From assembly GCA_964627055.1 (NCBI GenBank), contig CAZVGV010000001.1, positions 19,620-83,619 of the forward strand: a stretch of 64,000 bases of DNA. Reading direction: 5' to 3'. Every line of letters starts with the position of its first letter. Position 1 is the first letter of the stretch. The stretch comes from an uncultured Gammaproteobacteria bacterium. GTDB lineage: Bacteria; Patescibacteriota; Patescibacteriia; Magasanikbacterales; JBBTQS01. Below, one piece after another: positions 2,598 through 42,126 of the stretch. Under the pieces are notes generated by a model. The model was not told the DNA's origin. It worked only from the letters and a program-made list of their open reading frames with translations, and did not search any database. A program made the position numbers and the translations under genes.

Positions 2598-4619
2598 TTA
2601 CACCAACATCGAGACGATGAGCAGAGCGACGATGTTGAGAATCTTGATCATTGGGTTCACAGCTGGACCAGCAGTGTCCTTGTATGGGTCACCAACAGTG
2701 TCACCAGTAACAGCTGCTTGGTGCGCGATCGAACCCTTGCCGCCGTAGTTACCCTGTTCGATGAACTTCTTCGCGTTGTCCCAAGCGCCACCACCAGAGG
2801 TCATGGAGATTGCAACAAAGAGACCTGTTACGATCGAACCAACAAGGAGGCCACCAAGTGCTTCAGGTCCAAGCAAGAAACCAACAACGATTGGCACTAC
2901 TACTGGAATAAGAGCTGGGACAACCATTTCAGAGATTGCGCCCTTCGTAACAATGTCTACTGTACGTGCGTAGTCAGGCTTCGCCTTACCTTCCATGATG
3001 CCTGCGATTTCGCGGAACTGGCGTCGTACTTCCTCAACAACCTTACCAGCAACCTTACCTACAGCCTGCATTGCGTATGCTGCAAAGAGGTATGGGAGGA
3101 GTCCACCCAAGAACAAACCAACGAGTACGTATGGGTCACCGAGCTCGAACGAAAGTTCGTGTCCGAGATTTGCGAACTCTTGGGTGTATGCAGCAAAGAG
3201 AACGATTGAAGCAAGACCTGCAGATGCAATTGCGTAGCCCTTCGTAACTGCCTTGGTTGTGTTACCAACAGCGTCGAGAGGGTCTGTAATGTTGCGAACT
3301 GACTCATCGAGCTCAGCCATTTCTGCAATACCACCAGCGTTGTCTGTGATAGGGCCGTATGCATCAATTGCAATCACGATGCCTGCCATAGAGAGCATGG
3401 ACATAGCGGCAATTGCAACACCATAGATACCTTCAAGTTGGAATGCCCCAAGGATACCAGCGGCGATCACGATTACTGGAAGTGCTGTCGCCTTCATGGA
3501 TACCGCAAGACCAGTGATCACGTTCGTGCCATGACCAGTTTCGCTTGCCTTTGCGATAGAGCGAACTGGCTCATACTTGGTCGAGGTGTAGTACTCAGTG
3601 ATTACTACCATGAGTGCAGTCACCACAAGACCAATGAGCGCTGCGCCGTACATGCTTCCTGTGCTATTTGGGAAGAAGTGCGCTGTTGCTGGGTAGAAGA
3701 GAATTGCTGCGAGAAGGCCAGAAACTCCAAGGCCCTTGTACAGTGCATTCATGATGTTCTTCGAAGGACCAAGCTTGAAGAAGAACGTGCCAACAATCGA
3801 TGTAAGAATTGAGATTGCACCGAGGAAAAGTGGGAATACTACTGCAGCCTCACCACCTGCCTTGAATACGATTGATGCGAGAAGCATCGCGGATACTGAA
3901 GTAACCGCGTAGGTTTCGAACAAGTCTGCTGCCATACCTGCACAATCACCAACGTTGTCACCAACGTTGTCGGCGATTACTGCAGGGTTGCGTGGGTCAT
4001 CTTCTGGGATACCTTTTTCAACTTTACCTACGAGGTCTGCGCCCACATCAGCTGCCTTGGTGTAAATACCACCACCCAAGCGAGCGAACACGGAGATAAG
4101 TGATCCACCAAATCCGAGACCAACAAGCGCAGTCGTATCACGGGTGATCCAGTAGAAAACAGTCACACCGAGAAGCGCGAGACCAACAACGAGCAAACCA
4201 GTCACAGAGCCGCCCTTTACAGCGACGTCGAGTGCCTGTTGCATGCCAGACTTTGCCGCTTCAGTTGTGCGGACGTTTGCGCGTACCGACACAATCATGC
4301 CGATGACTCCGGCGATAGCGGAGAGTACAGCTCCAACGAGGAAGCCGAAGGCAACGCTCCAACCTAGTGAGCTAATACCCACGAGAATAAACACGACAAG
4401 ACCGATCCATGCGACCGTCTTATACTGGCGAACCATATAGGCGTTAGCGCCTTCTTGGATCGCACGTGCGATCGCCATCATTTTTTCGCTACCGGTTGGG
4501 CGCTGCATAACCCAGCGCGCGAGCCACAATCCATACGCGATTGCGACCAGGGACGCGACGAGCGCTGCCCACAAGTACATTGATACGTCTTGCATAAATA
4601 AGGACGTGAGTAAACGCAT
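2598..4619 (-). CDS. hppA: Membrane-bound proton/sodium-translocating pyrophosphatase
   Basis: 673 aa, multi-TM. Conserved H+-PPase motifs are visible ([56 protein letters not shown]). True start may be an internal Met (4595 or 4580). Confidence 0.92.
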
Positions 4620-4783
4620 TAAAAACTAGCGTTACTGTAAGGCAATTCCGATCAAACGTCAATAAATATCGAGAACCCCGCCGGCAGTACTGCTAGCGGG
4701 GCTCAAATCGTTCGAACCATGTGAAATCTTTCTCGGCTTGCGGCTATGCGCCGGGCCGGGGTGGGAGAGGTGCTGGCGCAGCC

Positions 4784-5434
4784 TCAGTAGACTCGGGTGT
4801 CCGCGAGGAGCGGTTGCGCCTGACGGAGAACTGCGTCGCCGGGACGGCTGTCTGGCTTCGGGAAGTCCCGGACCAGAACTTGGCATCGTAACGCGAGCGC
4901 GATGTACGGGCGTGTTGCCTGCGCATCGAACTCTGGCCGATTGCTCAAGTACGACCAGTCGTCGAGCATCGGTAGAACGATGCGCTGACATGCGCGTACC
5001 AGCCGATGCAGGTCGTCTGGAGCACCACCGGAACGCATCATGATCGTGAAGGCGTCCGTGATGATCGGTGTCTTTGTCGCGAGATTCGCAGCGAAGTCGC
5101 ACTGGGAGATGTCCTGAGTGCCAGGAATCGCCGTGATGAGCCCAGAAGGCTGGTATGCGTACTCGCGACACGCTTGGAACGAGCGCCACCGCTCGGTGTT
5201 GGAAGGAACCCAGTCACCGCCAATCGCAGTGATCGTGGGCTCTTCCGTGCGAGACTCAGCAGGCTTGACCTTCGCCGGCTTCGGCTGATCCTCGAGCTTC
5301 GGCCGCTCCGATTCTTGCGGCCACCAGAAGTAGAACGCGATGATCAGCAACGCGCCGATCAGCGCAAACAGCAGTGCCTTGGTAAACGTTACTTCCTCGT
5401 GTTGAGGGCCTCCTGCCCCAATGTGCGAGACCAT
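4784..5434 (-). CDS. Hypothetical membrane-anchored protein, GC-rich
   Basis: N-terminal TM helix (ALLFALIGALLIIAFYFWW) followed by a soluble domain. About 60% GC with strong GC3 bias against a ~55% background. Several overlapping ORFs exist in other frames; this frame is preferred because of the TM helix and a downstream hairpin (4676..4703). Confidence 0.4.
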   Translation of the reverse strand: MVSHIGAGGPQHEEVTFTKALLFALIGALLIIAFYFWWPQESERPKLEDQPKPAKVKPAESRTEEPTITAIGGDWVPSNTERWRSFQACREYAYQPSGLITAIPGTQDISQCDFAANLATKTPIITDAFTIMMRSGGAPDDLHRLVRACQRIVLPMLDDWSYLSNRPEFDAQATRPYIALALRCQVLVRDFPKPDSRPGDAVLRQAQPLLADTRVY

Positions 5435-14092: not shown

Positions 14093-14728
14093 AGGCGAAA
14101 ATGTACGCCCAGTATAGCAAAAAGTAATAAAAAAATCTCCTCCTTTGGGCTGCGAGTCGCTACCACACCAAGTTGAATCACACGAAAGGAGAAAGTGACT
14201 ACATACCCGTCAGGGTGTGTAGCGAGGAGAGAGTTGTACTTTCTCGTCTCTCACGTAATGCGGTGTATAGAGAATCGCAGCCCAAAAAAGAAGATCAAAT
14301 TGCATCCATATTCTACCGCGCACACCAACGATGTCAAGCAAACAAAAAGTGCCACCAAGGCGCAAGGCAGATGGGCATTGAATGGAGGATGTAAGGACCA
14401 AGACAGATGCCCGGGGGTGCCCTGCGCCCTAGCGGCACAGGCTTGTGGTGATTGTCCATCGAGAAATGTGCGGAGAGGAAACGATGGTGAGCAGCAACGC
14501 TACTCCCTGTCGCATCAGCGCCCTCAGCAGGTGATGTACAGCCGGAGCCGTTCATTCCTACGTCAGTTGCTACACACGTTCCATTTCGTGGTCCGTGCGC
14601 CCCTCTCCCCGCACCTTTCTCCATGGGATGAAAAGAACGTCGGAATATACCACGCCCCTTGAGCCTTGTCAAGTACCCAGTGGACATTACAAACTGTGGA
14701 TAAATACTAGGTTATCCCATTTGACAGG

Positions 14729-14757
14729 GACAAATCAGTGCCGTATAGTAGTGCTCG
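14729..14757 (+). promoter_or_regulatory. Predicted sigma70-type promoter for rpoBC (TTGACA-17 bp-TATAGT)
   Basis: Consensus -35 TTGACA at 14729..14734 and -10 TATAGT at 14752..14757, about 135 bp upstream of the rpoB start. Confidence 0.4.
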
Positions 14758-14891
14758 ACTCGCGGAGGAGCCTTTGGAACCTCTGCGTGCAAGGAAAATT
14801 CCATGTCAACCTTGCAGAAATTTGTCCAAAATTTGCGAGAATTTTAGAAAGAGCCCGATCGGTCGTCGGGTGATTTTTCGTATTTACCCCC

Positions 14892-32632: not shown

Positions 32633-32722
32633 ATTGCTTCGAAGCCTCACCCTGTTGGGTGGTTCTTTTGTTATTCTGGCGTTTTTGTCCCCATGTGCTA
32701 CACTTATAAAAACGTACTAAAT

Positions 32723-33466
32723 ATGAAAGATCTTGCTCCGCTTTTGCGCTCACTTGGCCTACTGGACAGTGAAATCAAAGTCTATGTTGCTGGCCTCACT
32801 CGAGGTGCCGGCACGATCCTGGATTTCACCAAGGCGACGCACTTGTCCCGCCAGGCAGTGTATACGGCGGTGGACGCACTTACTGACCGCGGCCTTTTTT
32901 CTAATGTAATGCGTGGGAAAAAGCGCTACTTCGCCGCAGAGCAACCCAACAAGCTCATTGCGTACGCGCATCGCTACCACCATGACGTGGCAACCAAGAT
33001 TGCAGACCTTGAACAGATGTTGCCAGAACTTACATTGCAAGCAGGTGGTGACAAGCCGATCGTTCGCCTCTTTGAGGGCAAGGAGGGGGTGCGTGCGATC
33101 ATGGAAGATTGGGCCAATACCGACTTCAAGGAAATGGATGAAATTGCGGACACGGACGCACTCTTCACAGTGTTAACACCGGAAGACCTTGCGCCTCTAC
33201 GCAAGATTCTTAAGAAGCGCGATGTGAAGGTTCGTGGGATGTACATGGGCAAGAAGCGGTCCGAAGGGACGGTTGGAGACTTGCATACCATCACGAGCAA
33301 AGAAGGGGAGTTCAAATCACATATTGGCGTGTACGGCGACAAGATTAACCTCGTCACGTTCGAGGGTAAGATGTATTCTGCAATTGTAGAAAGCAAACGA
33401 CTTGCTCAGGCAATGCGAACACTATTTCACCTCGCGATTGAGGGAGTGAAGGCTCAAAAAAAGTAG
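32723..33466 (+). CDS. TrmB-family (sugar-responsive) transcriptional regulator
   Basis: N-terminal winged helix (LGLLDSEIKVYVAGLTRGAGTILDFTKATHLSRQAVYTAVDALTDRGLF) plus a C-terminal effector domain. Sits directly downstream of the tkt-pfkB-fba operon. Confidence 0.7.
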   Translation: MKDLAPLLRSLGLLDSEIKVYVAGLTRGAGTILDFTKATHLSRQAVYTAVDALTDRGLFSNVMRGKKRYFAAEQPNKLIAYAHRYHHDVATKIADLEQMLPELTLQAGGDKPIVRLFEGKEGVRAIMEDWANTDFKEMDEIADTDALFTVLTPEDLAPLRKILKKRDVKVRGMYMGKKRSEGTVGDLHTITSKEGEFKSHIGVYGDKINLVTFEGKMYSAIVESKRLAQAMRTLFHLAIEGVKAQKK

Positions 33467-33476
33467 TAAAAAATGA

Positions 33477-33512
33477 GAAAGTCCAGTACGTTGTACGGGA
33501 CTTTCTTCGTTG
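33477..33512 (+). terminator. Intrinsic terminator after the trmB-family gene
   Basis: Stem GAAAGTCC / GGACTTTC with a 13-nt loop, followed by TTCGTT. Confidence 0.45.
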
Positions 33513-33722
33513 GAGTTGGAAGTGATGGTGATGGCGTACGCCGTGTTGTGTGGGGACACTACCCGCAGCCCATGACATTAGCCCTCCTCGTGCTGCAAAA
33601 ACGCTCCGGCAATATACCGTAAAAGCCGCGTGGACGCAGCTTCGGAAGCGCGCAACGTATGGCCGCACTTCATTACCCACGCTGGATCAACACTAGCATG
33701 CAATACAGGTGAGGTCAAGACG

Positions 33723-33746
33723 AAAAAACCGCGACAGACGTCGCGG
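33723..33746 (-). terminator. Minus-strand intrinsic terminator (CCGCGAC, AGAC loop, GTCGCGG, U-tract on the minus strand)
   Basis: Perfect 7-bp stem. Six A on the plus strand immediately 5' means six U follow the hairpin on the minus strand. Confidence 0.4.
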
Positions 33747-33772
33747 AAATAGGGGGGGTGAGCACGGGGTAT

Positions 33773-33820
33773 ATTTTTGTCAACTAAATACTTGACAAAA
33801 ATATATATTCTTGCTATAGT
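33773..33820 (+). promoter_or_regulatory. Consensus sigma70 promoter (TTGACA-17-TATAGT) inside an 11-bp perfect inverted-repeat operator (ATTTTTGTCAA-N8-TTGACAAAAAT)
   Basis: -35 TTGACA at 33792..33797 and -10 TATAGT at 33815..33820. The right palindrome arm overlaps the -35. Confidence 0.5.
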
Positions 33821-33969
33821 CGCTCTCGTACATATGAGGAGACGCGAGAATCCAGAGAAGGATTGTCGCGCGAGCATTCGATCCATGTTTCGTGGTGGTT
33901 ACGTGGTTCGGATGTTCACGCAACGATCGTATCTCATGCCCGGCGACCACGTGGTCGCTGGATTTTTTT
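33821..33969 (+). ncRNA. Candidate small transcript (~140 nt); alternatively a leaderless 45-aa ORF (33834..33971)
   Basis: Bounded by the consensus promoter above and an intrinsic terminator at 33942..33969 (GGCGACC, ACGT loop, GGTCGCT, then GGATTTTTTT). No Shine-Dalgarno before the ATG at 33834. Convergent with the spoU 3' end. Confidence 0.35.
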
Positions 33970-34432
33970 AGAAAAATCGAGCAATTGCGTATGCCAATCC
34001 GCCGAAGGCAACCGAGACATTGAGTGATTCCTTGGTGCCTAACATGGGCAGGTGCACCACGGTATCACACTGTGCAAGTTGTGGGCGGGTAACACCAGTG
34101 ACCTCGTTGCCAACCACGATTGCTAGTGGGAATTGAGGTGTCCAATTGCGATAGTCAATACTTGATTTTGTTTTCTCGAGTGCAACGAGAGTGTACCCGG
34201 CATTGCGTAGTTCGCGTAGGAGTGGCAAAGCAGTGGGGCGGTGTTCCCATGGGATAGTTCGTTCGGCACCAAGGGAGACCTTGTCAACGCGTGGGTGACC
34301 AGGGTGTGGGGTGTAGCCGGTTAGGTAGATTTTGCTGACTCCGATGGCATCAGCAGTACGAAAAAATGCACCGACATTGTGTGCGGAACGAATATTAGGA
34401 AGGATTAACACGATGGTGGGGTGGGGTGACAT
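33968..34432 (-). CDS. SpoU/TrmH-class RNA 2'-O-methyltransferase
   Basis: SPOUT motifs (VLILPNIRSAHNVGAFFRTADAIG; VVGNEVTGV; SLNVSVA). Confidence 0.8.
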   Translation of the reverse strand: MSPHPTIVLILPNIRSAHNVGAFFRTADAIGVSKIYLTGYTPHPGHPRVDKVSLGAERTIPWEHRPTALPLLRELRNAGYTLVALEKTKSSIDYRNWTPQFPLAIVVGNEVTGVTRPQLAQCDTVVHLPMLGTKESLNVSVAFGGLAYAIARFF

Positions 34433-39737: not shown

Positions 39738-39826
39738 AAAACACCGTGGTGGTTGGTGAGTATCAGCCTACCACGGGACAGGGTCTTGCGGAAGTCGTGT
39801 AGATTCGGTACAGTGTCCCCACAAAT

Positions 39827-39901
39827 CGCGGGTATTGTATAACGGCTATTATCTCAGTTTTCCAAACTGATGACGCGGGTTCGACTCCCGCTACCCGCTC
39901 C
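39827..39901 (+). tRNA. tRNA-Gly (anticodon UCC), CCA encoded
   Basis: Manual fold: acceptor GCGGGTA/TACCCGC, anticodon stem TCAGT/ACTGA, loop TTTCCAA (UCC), T-arm GCGGG-TTCGACT-CCCGC, discriminator U as in bacterial tRNA-Gly. Short, atypical D-arm. Confidence 0.75.
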
Positions 39902-40079: not shown

Positions 40080-41543
40080 ATGGAACGATTGTGCAAAATA
40101 TGTGGTGGCTACCATAGTCCAGGTCAGTGCACGAAGAAGGAAAATTCAGCGGAACTTAGTCCACTTGTCTTTGCCCCATTTGCCGAAAAGTATGCGGGTA
40201 AGGCTATTCTTGAATGTGTCCTCATGGCCGCTTCGGAGCTCGATGAGTATGAGTTACTAGTGAAGCAGAAGAGGCTGACCAATCATGAATTAGTTGAATA
40301 TCTTGGACTTATCGGATTTTTTGAAACCTATCCGGCAATATTGCAAGATGCAAACCAACAGTACAAAAAATACACAGAACAGCTAGACAAAGAATTGACT
40401 CGTAGTTATTCGGATCCGGCGGTTCGTAGAAGAAAAAAATACGACGGATTTGTGAGTGCGTTGTCGGCACCTGCAATCCTTGACCGCCCCGTTCTAAAAG
40501 AGGTCGTGGACGAACTTTTCTTTATCCAGAGAGATGAGATGGTGACAGCATGGCTCAATCAGATAGAACTTCCCAAACGAAGTATTTCTAAGGAAGGCGT
40601 CATCGATGTGACGCAGAAGGTTTTTCGTGAATGCGCCAAATGGTCGATCGCTTCGCAACAGAATAGAGATGATCTTTCGGCATATATTTTTCTCCGTAAG
40701 GTTGCCGAGGCATATGCATTTGCTTTAAATTTACAACAGAGCGGGGCGTACTCTGGAGAATTTGATACCGTAGCAGCGGAAGAAGCGAGCGATCTGCGAG
40801 TGGATGTTTTGAGTACAAGATTGCGGCCTGGCGTGTATGAATGTCAGGTGCCAGATGGAGTGCCTTGGATCACAGTCATGTATCTGGTGGTCCCCGAAGA
40901 GGGGAAGGAGCCATTTACTTGGGCTGGTGTAGAGGTAGAGTTAGCAGGTGACCCACAGGACAGTTCCAAGCTCACGCATACGTCTTGGCCTATTAGTGAA
41001 CTTACCAGAGAGTTGGGAGTCATGGGTTCTAAAATCACGACGTTGGGTTCGCTGTTTGAAAGGTATGGTCTAGAAAAAGAATATCAGCAATTTCAGCATG
41101 AAATATTTCGGTCGATTGCGTCCCTTATTGAATCATACCCAGAATGTATCTTAGATAGACAGCAAGAAACAGATGAATTGGAGAGAGCACTTGTTCAAGA
41201 ACCTGTACAGGAAGAAGATATGGATGCGCTACAGGTATCTCTTCCACGGGCTCAGTATAAAGAAGATGCGTTAGTGGCAGAGCGCCAACAGAAAAAGCAT
41301 GAGATCTTTCGTGAGATGCGAAACCTCTCTTTTGAGAGGACCATCAAAGCATTTCAGAGACTTGGAGTAGAAGTCAGGTACGGTGGCCGTCACATCAAGT
41401 TGGTGAAAATGGAAAACGGGCGAGAGCGTACCGTTCCGTTCATGAATCGTCATAGTAAGGGAATACATTATATGGCTCGTGTTGTGAGACAAGCCATCAA
41501 CATCTTGGGTCTGGATGAGCAGGAATTTGTTTCGGCGCTTTGA
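40080..41543 (+). CDS. Large hypothetical protein (487 aa) with an N-terminal CxxC...C zinc-ribbon-like motif and a C-terminal HicA/YcfA-like (mRNA interferase toxin fold) domain
   Basis: C-terminal 70 aa (SFERTIKAFQRLGVEVRYGGRHIKLVKMENGRERTVPFMNRHSKGIHYMARVVRQAINILGL) match the HicA pattern (K..L...G....R..GSHH......G....TVP.H...I....L..IL.Q.GL). Lower GC than flanks. An extended -10 TGTTATGAT lies upstream. Confidence 0.55.
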   Translation: MERLCKICGGYHSPGQCTKKENSAELSPLVFAPFAEKYAGKAILECVLMAASELDEYELLVKQKRLTNHELVEYLGLIGFFETYPAILQDANQQYKKYTEQLDKELTRSYSDPAVRRRKKYDGFVSALSAPAILDRPVLKEVVDELFFIQRDEMVTAWLNQIELPKRSISKEGVIDVTQKVFRECAKWSIASQQNRDDLSAYIFLRKVAEAYAFALNLQQSGAYSGEFDTVAAEEASDLRVDVLSTRLRPGVYECQVPDGVPWITVMYLVVPEEGKEPFTWAGVEVELAGDPQDSSKLTHTSWPISELTRELGVMGSKITTLGSLFERYGLEKEYQQFQHEIFRSIASLIESYPECILDRQQETDELERALVQEPVQEEDMDALQVSLPRAQYKEDALVAERQQKKHEIFREMRNLSFERTIKAFQRLGVEVRYGGRHIKLVKMENGRERTVPFMNRHSKGIHYMARVVRQAINILGLDEQEFVSAL

Positions 41544-41656: not shown

Positions 41657-41890
41657 GAATATCACGAGTTCCTCGAGCTGGATGTCACGCATGGTACCCG
41701 TGGAGTGCAAGTAGAACTGCGTACCAGGGAAGCACCCGCACAATAAGACGTTGATGTGATCGTCCTTGCTGGGTGTGGACGGCAGAGCCGTGCGGTGGCA
41801 CGTGATCAGCCGAGCCCATGGGGTGCGTCAGCGAGGAGTTGTAGTGTGGGTACAGAGATGGCAAGCCGAATTGTTTCGTGGTCATCACCT
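41640..41890 (-). pseudogene. Decayed fragment paralogous to the 3' half of the 42355..43023 gene
   Basis: About 80% nt identity over ~120 bp (41650..41770 versus 42373..42490). The minus-strand frame conserves GCFPGxQFxLxSxGxMRDIQxEExVxFNKS but the stop is lost and the upstream part is frameshifted. Confidence 0.45.
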
Positions 41891-41971
41891 AGGAGGGATT
41901 CAATTGCTGGGTCGAACTGTGGGGTGATGAAGTTTTGGATGTACTCACTCGGTACAGTGTCCCCACAAATC

Positions 41972-42043
41972 GCGGGTATTGTATAACGGCTATTATCTCA
42001 GTTTTCCAAACTGATGACGCGGGTTCGACTCCCGCTACCCGCT
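41972..42043 (+). tRNA. Second, identical copy of tRNA-Gly (UCC); CCA not encoded (CCG)
   Basis: 72-nt body identical to 39827..39898. Together with 22 bp of upstream sequence it forms a 97-bp perfect direct repeat (39804..39900 and 41949..42045). Confidence 0.7.
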
Positions 42044-42126
42044 CCGCTTCAAGAATACAGGTACAAGCCTTGCGTTATCCGTTCGCAGCGTGCATACTGC
42101 GCTTGTTAGTCATAATCCAAAAATAT

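Follow-up and report, generated by a model that had tools for sequence, protein, structure and literature searches.

The RNA-1 locus

We have analyzed a compact intergenic unit, here called RNA-1, on a contig (CAZVGV010000001.1) of the Patescibacteria, or candidate phyla radiation (CPR). In NCBI the sequence corresponds to contig JACCDM010272542.1 of assembly GCA_013565575.1. The stretch studied is 64,000 nucleotides (64 kb) long and is referred to throughout as the window; coordinates are those of the window unless another locus is named. The gene order around the unit is PfkB, aldolase, a TrmB-family regulator, an intergenic region of ~500 bp which contains RNA-1, a convergent SpoU gene and YibE/F. 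We consider RNA-1 best explained as an independently transcribed, repressor-controlled and lineage-specific gene for a non-coding small RNA (sRNA) of ~140 nt, with an invariant hairpin, P2, as its functional module; the probability that we attach to this reading is roughly 0.6. An earlier, sequence-only reading of the same DNA had described a tight operator/promoter/terminator unit at this place and offered an sRNA as one explanation of it. This proposal is supported by the presence of the promoter, the operator arms, the hairpin core and the terminator in six diverged lineages, namely the window and five relatives. The parts of the unit are as follows.

33770..33783, no strand assigned: left arm of the operator, TATATTTTTGTCAA, the core of which (TTTGTCAA) is invariant in the six lineages.
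33792..33805, no strand assigned: right arm of the operator, TTGACAAAAATATA, which includes the -35 hexamer and has a core (TTGACAAA) invariant in the six lineages.
33792..33820, plus strand: sigma-70-type promoter, with -35 TTGACA at 33792-33797, a 17-nt spacer, TG at 33812-33813 and -10 TATAGT at 33815-33820.
33827..33969, plus strand: predicted RNA-1 transcript of ~140 nt, its start placed from the position of the -10 element and its end from the terminator U-tract.
33836..33841, plus strand: GAGGAG purine motif just 5' of hairpin P1, found in the window, L034 and L035.
33843..33870, plus strand: hairpin P1, with 5' strand 33843-33853, loop 33854-33859 and 3' strand 33860-33870.
33872..33917, plus strand: core of hairpin P2, 46 nt, with a 9-bp and a 6-bp stem, a small internal loop and a 12-nt loop, UUCGUGGUGGUU, at 33889-33900.
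33919..33928, plus strand: 3' strand of the P2 extension, which pairs with 33861-33870.
33940..33969, plus strand: intrinsic terminator, a stem-loop CCGGCGACC-ACGT-GGTCGCTGG at 33940-33961 followed by T7 at 33963-33969.

Relatives carrying the unit

Loci of other genomes are designated by L numbers. A SpoU protein scan of GTDB species genomes yielded 20 loci, and an RNA-1 homolog was found only in the closest of these, L004, at the same position and next to a SpoU that is 85% identical to that of the window. A covariance model (R1) was built from the first two RNA-1 sequences and used to detect further members. A SpoU search of a large protein collection, combined with contig look-ups, added the lineages L034, L035, L036 and L037, whose SpoU proteins are 84-94% identical and whose RNA-1 genes, beside SpoU, score between 62 and 92 bits with the model. 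Near-identical contigs from two sequencing runs were also encountered; their intergenic region is identical and hence uninformative for conservation. Among the six lineages, SpoU is 73-85% identical at the DNA level and only 43-60% identical at third codon positions, which is near saturation.

The unit was not found at loci whose SpoU is <=73% identical: model R1 was blank in 18 more distant SpoU loci, and it was also blank in 9 loci of TrmB-like homologs (55-60% identity). Phage records and viral contigs gave no RNA-1 match. In a pattern scan of JGI metagenomes with YYRYGTTTCGTGGTGGTTACRYRR, the only matches were to the L004 species (Hainich H41) and chance matches. The latter comprise L030 and one gut Bacteroidales locus seen seven times; the MFRGGY reading common to them is imposed by the pattern. 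As far as these searches extend, the RNA-1 gene is confined to one narrow clade of Patescibacteria.

The gut locus (L024, L026, L028, L029, L031, L032 and L033, mostly human-gut metagenome contigs) is AT-rich and has a common 22-mer, CATGTTTCGTGGTGGTTACATG, with a partial complement, GTAAACCACCAC, 70 nt later. Beyond the scan pattern it is unrelated to RNA-1, and its match is probably due to chance.

The two protein genes that flank the intergenic region in the window are these.

32723..33466, plus strand: TrmB-family winged-helix regulator gene (Pfam PF01978), 247 aa from ATG 32723.
33968..34432, minus strand: SpoU/TrmH-family methyltransferase gene (PF00588), 154 aa, convergent with RNA-1, its stop codon abutting the RNA-1 U-tract.

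The layout of TrmB-like gene, RNA-1 and convergent SpoU recurs at the corresponding site in the relatives. The TrmB-like gene is present upstream of RNA-1 wherever the contig extends that far, that is, in the window, L004, L034, L035 and L036.

Operator and promoter

The 11-bp inverted repeat that had been reported to overlap the promoter is present and is in fact longer, with perfect arms of 14 nt, or of 17 nt at 94%. The consensus derived from the six-lineage alignment is TTTTGTCAA(C/G)T-N4-ACTTGACAAAA; the central 4 nt of the spacer are different in every lineage, and the 11-nt arms of L037 show perfect symmetry. Fixed arms around a free centre are what would be expected where a DNA-binding protein attaches as a dimer. 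The palindrome is unique to the RNA-1 promoter, both in the 64-kb window with <=2 mismatches allowed and in an operator scan of all fetched loci. No -10 partner of the left arm is found at a fixed distance on the opposite strand in any lineage, and the left arm is therefore not a divergent promoter.

The consensus TTGACA-17-TATAGT promoter described by the sequence-only reading scores 11/12 and in addition has a TG-extended -10; TG is carried by just two of the five sites that score 11/12 in the window. A promoter is found at the RNA-1 position in all six lineages, with TTGACA as the -35 element in each. The TG-extended -10 is seen in five of the six, in the form TATAGT, TAAAGT, TAGACT or TAGAGT, and L037 has a TG-less TATGAT.

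The predicted transcript and its hairpins

The predicted transcript of 145 nt has a folding energy of -64 kcal/mol (z = -4.7 relative to dinucleotide shuffles), and a z of -4.7 is obtained in two lineages. This value and the conservation of the whole unit in five other lineages bear out the earlier view that the unit is unlikely to be accidental. The 5' leader of RNA-1 varies in length and sequence and includes an indel of 10-11 nt. One-base variants of the GAGGAG motif occur in L004 (GGGGAG) and L036 (GAGGAA), and the motif is absent from L037. In P1, 8 of the 11 pairs have changed on one side only yet are still paired, with 96.7% of alignment cells paired; L037 is without P1.

The terminator, too, has been rewritten. 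The clean intrinsic terminator claimed ~140 nt downstream of the promoter has a stem of 9 bp, 7 of them GC, ahead of T7, and although the stems differ in sequence, a GC-rich hairpin and U-tract are kept in four of the five relatives. L037 lacks a separate terminator hairpin, and its long P2 hairpin followed by U6 serves as terminator.

The P2 core is identical in the six lineages save for one G-U/G-C change and a small variation of the internal loop (AU/UU, AU/U or UA/U). Its 12-nt apical loop is G/U-rich. Two U-G wobble pairs never vary, though a single transition in each would give a Watson-Crick pair. Given that P1 and the terminator have been rewritten and that synonymous sites are saturated, the invariance of the P2 stems and wobbles would be due to sequence-specific recognition of the whole hairpin.

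Invariance on both stem strands would equally be expected of a DNA site, and the unit could in principle be a DNA-level element that resembles an RNA gene, such as a protein-binding palindrome, a recombination or integration site, or a relic of a mobile element. However, the three G-U pairs of the hairpin become C-A mismatches on the other strand, so that the hairpin is strand-specific, and the strand is that of the promoter. The hairpin is moreover bracketed by a conserved promoter and covarying terminators, and it occurs as a single copy with the same synteny in six lineages and with no phage or viral match. A DNA-level element is for these reasons very improbable.

The segment GGAUUGUCGCG (33860-33870) can pair either upstream, to form P1, or with 33919-33928, which lengthens P2 to a hairpin of ~27 bp; RNA-1 therefore has two alternative folds. 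P1 and the P2 extension are mutually exclusive, and the fold of minimum energy varies by lineage. Over P2 and its extension, 6 pairs have changed on both sides, a number reached in 0 of 500 shuffles; slid controls gave <=3.

By two criteria, a promoter and Rho-independent terminator of its own and RNA-type conservation without a conserved open reading frame (ORF), RNA-1 would qualify as a bacterial stand-alone sRNA gene. The second of these rests on the comparison of reading frames given below.

Coding potential and the convergent spoU gene

The sequence-only reading had put forward a basic peptide of 45 aa, translated from a leaderless message, as an alternative to an sRNA.

33834..33971, plus strand: ORF of 45 aa, present in the window, with its TAG stop inside the terminator tail; rejected as a gene.

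The start codon was said to lie 13-18 nt from the predicted transcription start; the actual distance is ~5-8 nt. When the conservation of this ORF was checked, as had been recommended, ATG 33834 proved to be missing in L004, L034, L035, L036 and L037. The lineages have no start, stop or frame in common, their frames being offset by indels of 10, 2 and 1 nt. A 1-nt indel (GGTTCGG/GG-TCGG) inside P2 makes all three frames diverge downstream. Several candidate ORFs run without a stop ahead of the terminator, with starts and stops that differ among the lineages. No start codon is found at Shine-Dalgarno (SD) distance from the GAGGAG motif in any lineage. A small basic protein made from an mRNA with a short leader or none thus has in its favor the ORF of the window, from ATG 33834 to the TAG in the terminator tail, and is already contradicted by the missing ATG of five relatives, by the frame-breaking indels and by the lack of an SD at the right distance. 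We consider it barely credible.

The other alternative that had been raised was an RNA convergent with, and potentially antisense to, the 3' end of spoU. The convergence is confirmed. Antisense pairing, on the other hand, would need read-through: the overlap is otherwise <=3 nt, with the spoU stop codon (33968-33970) touching the RNA-1 U-tract. In L037, RNA-1 ends ~45 nt before spoU.

RNA-1 might still be a cis-antisense or interference element for spoU. Its strong promoter fires head-on at the 3' end of this gene, and if either transcript read through, a long RNA duplex or a polymerase collision would tune SpoU. In agreement with such a role, five of the six lineages preserve the convergent arrangement in which the U-tract of RNA-1 meets the spoU stop codon. 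On the minus strand, furthermore, the terminator hairpin of RNA-1 is without a U-run, so that the spoU mRNA may cross the RNA-1 gene, with a stop beyond it at 33746-33729. This stop is an intrinsic terminator of the minus strand (CCGCGACGTCTGTCGCGG plus T6, 33729-33746), situated between the RNA-1 promoter and the divergent promoter of a second sRNA unit (RNA-2, see below), and it would halt spoU read-through that runs antisense through RNA-1. It is, however, not conserved in the relatives, and synteny among relatives as close as these weighs little. Interference also leaves the invariant 46-nt hairpin unexplained, since any transcribed sequence would do. The RNA-1 of L037 stops short of spoU, as noted, and the unit is missing beside SpoU homologs that are <=73% identical. 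An action on spoU is for these reasons unlikely to be what RNA-1 is for.

Comparison with described RNA families

At the gathering threshold, Rfam 15 identified only four tRNAs in the whole window. With E values up to 10 and relaxed filters, the interval 33700-34050 gave only chance-level matches, at 13.6-18.3 bits against thresholds of >=33. The covariance-model search that had been proposed as a check of the unit thus returned no match for RNA-1.

Several families were also considered individually and rejected. For 6S RNA, the fold is a nearly continuous helix with internal loops of only 1-2 nt and no central bubble, and there is no match to the Rfam 6S model. For signal recognition particle (SRP, 4.5S) RNA, the apical loop is 12 nt, there are no GNRA tetraloop and no SRP-type internal loops, and the SRP model does not match. 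A riboswitch or T-box would precede a gene in the same orientation; none lies downstream, spoU being convergent, and again there is no Rfam match. A T-loop-like sequence, GGUUCGGAU, which might suggest a T-loop or tRNA mimic, loses a U in four of the six lineages. GGA motifs are not enriched, as they would be in a CsrA sponge. Pairing between the GUCGCG segment and the terminator, which would make an antiterminator, amounts to <=5 bp and is not conserved.

It could still be argued that standard models fail to recognize, in CPR genomes, a diverged form of some housekeeping or regulatory RNA already described (6S, SRP/4.5S, Y RNA, T-box or another riboswitch), and that RNA-1 is such a form. The strong promoter, the rod-like P2 with its extension and highly conserved apex, and the switch-like choice between P1 and the P2 extension would all suit such an RNA. 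Weighing against it are the absence of any Rfam match at E up to 10, the lack of the features that define these families, and the restriction to a single narrow clade; a housekeeping RNA should occur in relatives as well. We regard a diverged known RNA as quite improbable. RNA-1 is, by these comparisons, a new sRNA family of narrow distribution, although its general kind, the repressor-controlled stand-alone sRNA, is already known.

The closest parallels of this general kind are sRNA genes of the RyhB type, in which a palindromic operator for a repressor overlies the sigma-70 promoter (the Fur box at ryhB); the tisB promoter, which is divergent from istR, likewise carries a LexA box. RNA-1 resembles the RyhB type in being an intergenic, self-contained unit of ~90-140 nt with a symmetric operator over its promoter, an intrinsic terminator and no conserved ORF, and in having a short invariant module with variable sequence on either side. 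It differs in that its operator resembles neither the Fur nor the LexA box, in having no sequence or Rfam relationship to these RNAs, and in the nature of the invariant module, a whole hairpin of 46 nt rather than a short single-stranded seed.

With CopA, RNAI and Sok, RNA-1 shares a long, near-perfect hairpin, an exposed loop that could start pairing, and a strong promoter. These RNAs, however, are encoded opposite their targets, and the strand opposite RNA-1 holds only a possible 3' tail of spoU; the 12-nt loop is also larger than typical kissing loops. The 6S, CsrB/RsmZ and bacterial Y RNAs are, like RNA-1, highly structured and strongly expressed (the latter a prediction in the case of RNA-1), with helices conserved in sequence. 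In contrast to them, RNA-1 lacks the 6S bubble and a tRNA-like module, GGA loops are not enriched in it, and tblastn of the examined sequence found no partner protein gene linked to it.

A second conserved unit, RNA-2

A second small unit lies back-to-back with RNA-1, and each of the two is convergent with a protein gene.

33468..33718, minus strand: RNA-2, a conserved small unit, present also in L004, L034, L035, L036 and L037.

In the window, the RNA-2 promoter consists of TTGACC (33718-33713), 17 nt and TGcTAGTGT (-10 at 33695-33690); promoters of the form TTGACC/G-17-TGcTAGTGT/TAGGCT are conserved in five lineages. The body of RNA-2 is 215-250 nt long (~215 nt in the window). Its terminator, a stem at 33506-33476 followed by T6 at 33473-33468, abuts the stop codon of the TrmB-like gene. 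RNA-2 has a conserved SD-like GAGGG and a mini-ORF of four codons at 33573-33559 that reads MGCG, MGNA, MGDA or MGNG; the second codon is always GGN, and the stop is kept by means of different codons (TAG, TAA, TGA). No Rfam match was obtained for the interval 33440-33760 at E up to 10.

The possibility that RNA-1 and RNA-2 form a type I toxin-antitoxin pair was considered and rejected. Neither unit has a conserved ORF of >4 codons, and a manual comparison of the sequences showed that L004 and L035 do not preserve the partial complementarity of the loop to the SD region.

Proposed mode of action

We propose that RNA-1 would be transcribed from its strong sigma-70-type promoter with extended -10. 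A dimeric repressor bound to the symmetric operator, the right half of which is the -35 element, would occlude this element and block RNA polymerase. An obvious candidate for this repressor, though no more than a candidate, is the TrmB-family protein encoded next to the unit. Once made, the RNA would most likely act in trans, with P2 as a specific binding platform.

What P2 binds can be suggested only tentatively. It may bind or sequester a protein, a possibility that we hold at somewhat less than even odds; the invariant stems and the retained U-G wobbles would fit specific recognition of a hairpin. Alternatively, and with hardly less probability, the loop UUCGUGGUGGUU might start base pairing with an RNA that contains AACCACCACGAA, and the pairing could then spread into the stems.

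The searches for partners and targets covered the 64-kb window and the fetched loci, which is <10% of the genome. Within this sequence, exact and 2-mismatch searches for the complement of the loop gave nothing above chance. When the window was scanned for duplexes with the P2 apex, the sole outlier was its own antisense strand. An 11-nt match was noted at 41880 (minus strand), in DNA that is non-coding and close to a tRNA.

A number of observations weigh against the proposed sRNA gene and its regulation. Only six lineages of one narrow clade carry RNA-1, and its transcription is predicted from sequence features. As P2 never varies, its structure rests on thermodynamics, without covariation, and the both-sided changes of the P2 extension all come from a single lineage, L037. 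No site complementary to the P2 loop is present in the window or the fetched loci, and tblastn found no Hfq, CsrA, ProQ or FliW there. Finally, the promoter of the TrmB-like gene has an inverted repeat different from that of RNA-1, and the TrmB-like protein therefore need not be the regulator of RNA-1.

The repeat in question, CGTTTTTGT-N17-ATAAAAACG (32680-32688 / 32706-32714), brackets the extended -10 promoter (TGcTACACT) of the TrmB-like gene and is conserved in L004 and L035. It is a candidate autoregulatory operator, unlike the operator of RNA-1. The TrmB-like gene probably starts at ATG 32723, with a leader of ~12 nt that has no SD.

Related loci in other CPR genomes

TrmB-like homologs with 55-60% identity are found in other CPR genomes, where covariance models and the operator scan detected no RNA-1, RNA-2 or operator. 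These loci nevertheless share a layout, in which a minus-strand unit ends at the stop of the regulator and is followed by a strong plus-strand promoter, ACTTGACA-17-TGTGGTATTGT.

In L042, a self-contained unit of ~140 nt (3549-3690, plus strand) has a promoter TTGACA-17-TGGTATTGT, a terminator AAAAACCGCCTTTTGGGCGGTTTTT and a 9-bp hairpin (11-nt loop) surrounded by many GAGGAG/GGAGG motifs. This unit is like RNA-1 in its place downstream of a TrmB-like gene, its promoter, its length of ~140 nt, its own terminator and its GAGGAG-rich 5' part. It is unlike RNA-1 in having neither the P2 hairpin nor a palindromic operator, and homology between the two lacks statistical support: when nhmmer was run with the promoter and leader of RNA-1, L042 was not matched. 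The sole outside matches of this search were in L045 (E ~0.5). By eye, the promoter and leader of RNA-1 suggest homology to the RNAs of L045 and L047; this is not significant at such an E value and is not claimed.

In L047 (4326-6660), a strong promoter downstream of the TrmB-like gene is followed by ~2.3 kb of GC-rich DNA that ends at a Ro60/TROVE gene. This stretch has no credible ORF and, with E values up to 1 allowed, no Rfam match. Dispersed 25-nt repeats occur in it, as does a 205-nt block in common with L045 (78% identity), where the corresponding promoter-led stretch (4457-5137) is also without a credible ORF or Rfam match. The stretches of L047 and L045 may correspond to one large non-coding RNA or to RNAs in an array.

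A more general interpretation is that RNA-1 and RNA-2 are the local form of a fast-evolving, TrmB-linked non-coding RNA locus that exists across Patescibacteria, other forms being the 140-nt GGAG-rich RNA of L042 and the >2-kb stretch of L047. The invariant 46-nt hairpin would then be a ligand or RNA subunit of a CPR-specific protein-RNA system with a dedicated repressor. We offer this as a speculation that is rather unlikely as it stands.

Other features of the window

An 800-nt gene-free region (14093-14890) lies upstream of rpoB. It has near-consensus back-to-back promoters at 14672 (minus strand, with TG) and 14721 (plus strand) and a third promoter at 14337 (minus strand). A minus-strand unit of ~300 nt in this region ends in a terminator-like GGTGGCAC and a T-run. 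The region has no Rfam match and may hold further unannotated RNA units.

Two identical copies of tRNA-Gly(TCC), at 39805-39901 and 41949-42045, are ~97 nt each including 23 nt upstream. They flank ~2.1 kb that holds an ORF of 487 aa (40080-41543). As judged from the sequence, a duplicated tRNA around an insert is a signature of an integrated element.

Significance

Patescibacteria have genomes of ~1 Mb with few regulators and are mostly uncultured. To our knowledge, almost nothing is known of RNA-based regulation in this group. RNA-1 is a cleanly bounded, predicted sRNA gene with a recognizable operator and a 46-nt element that is invariant amid saturated synonymous sites, and as such it provides a concrete entry point. 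The operator could be used as bait for the repressor and the hairpin as bait for its partner. The analysis also shows that standard annotation and Rfam overlook several promoter/terminator units in this lineage, which are thus left unannotated. The importance of RNA-1 would increase if its link to a CPR-wide TrmB-associated locus proved to be true.

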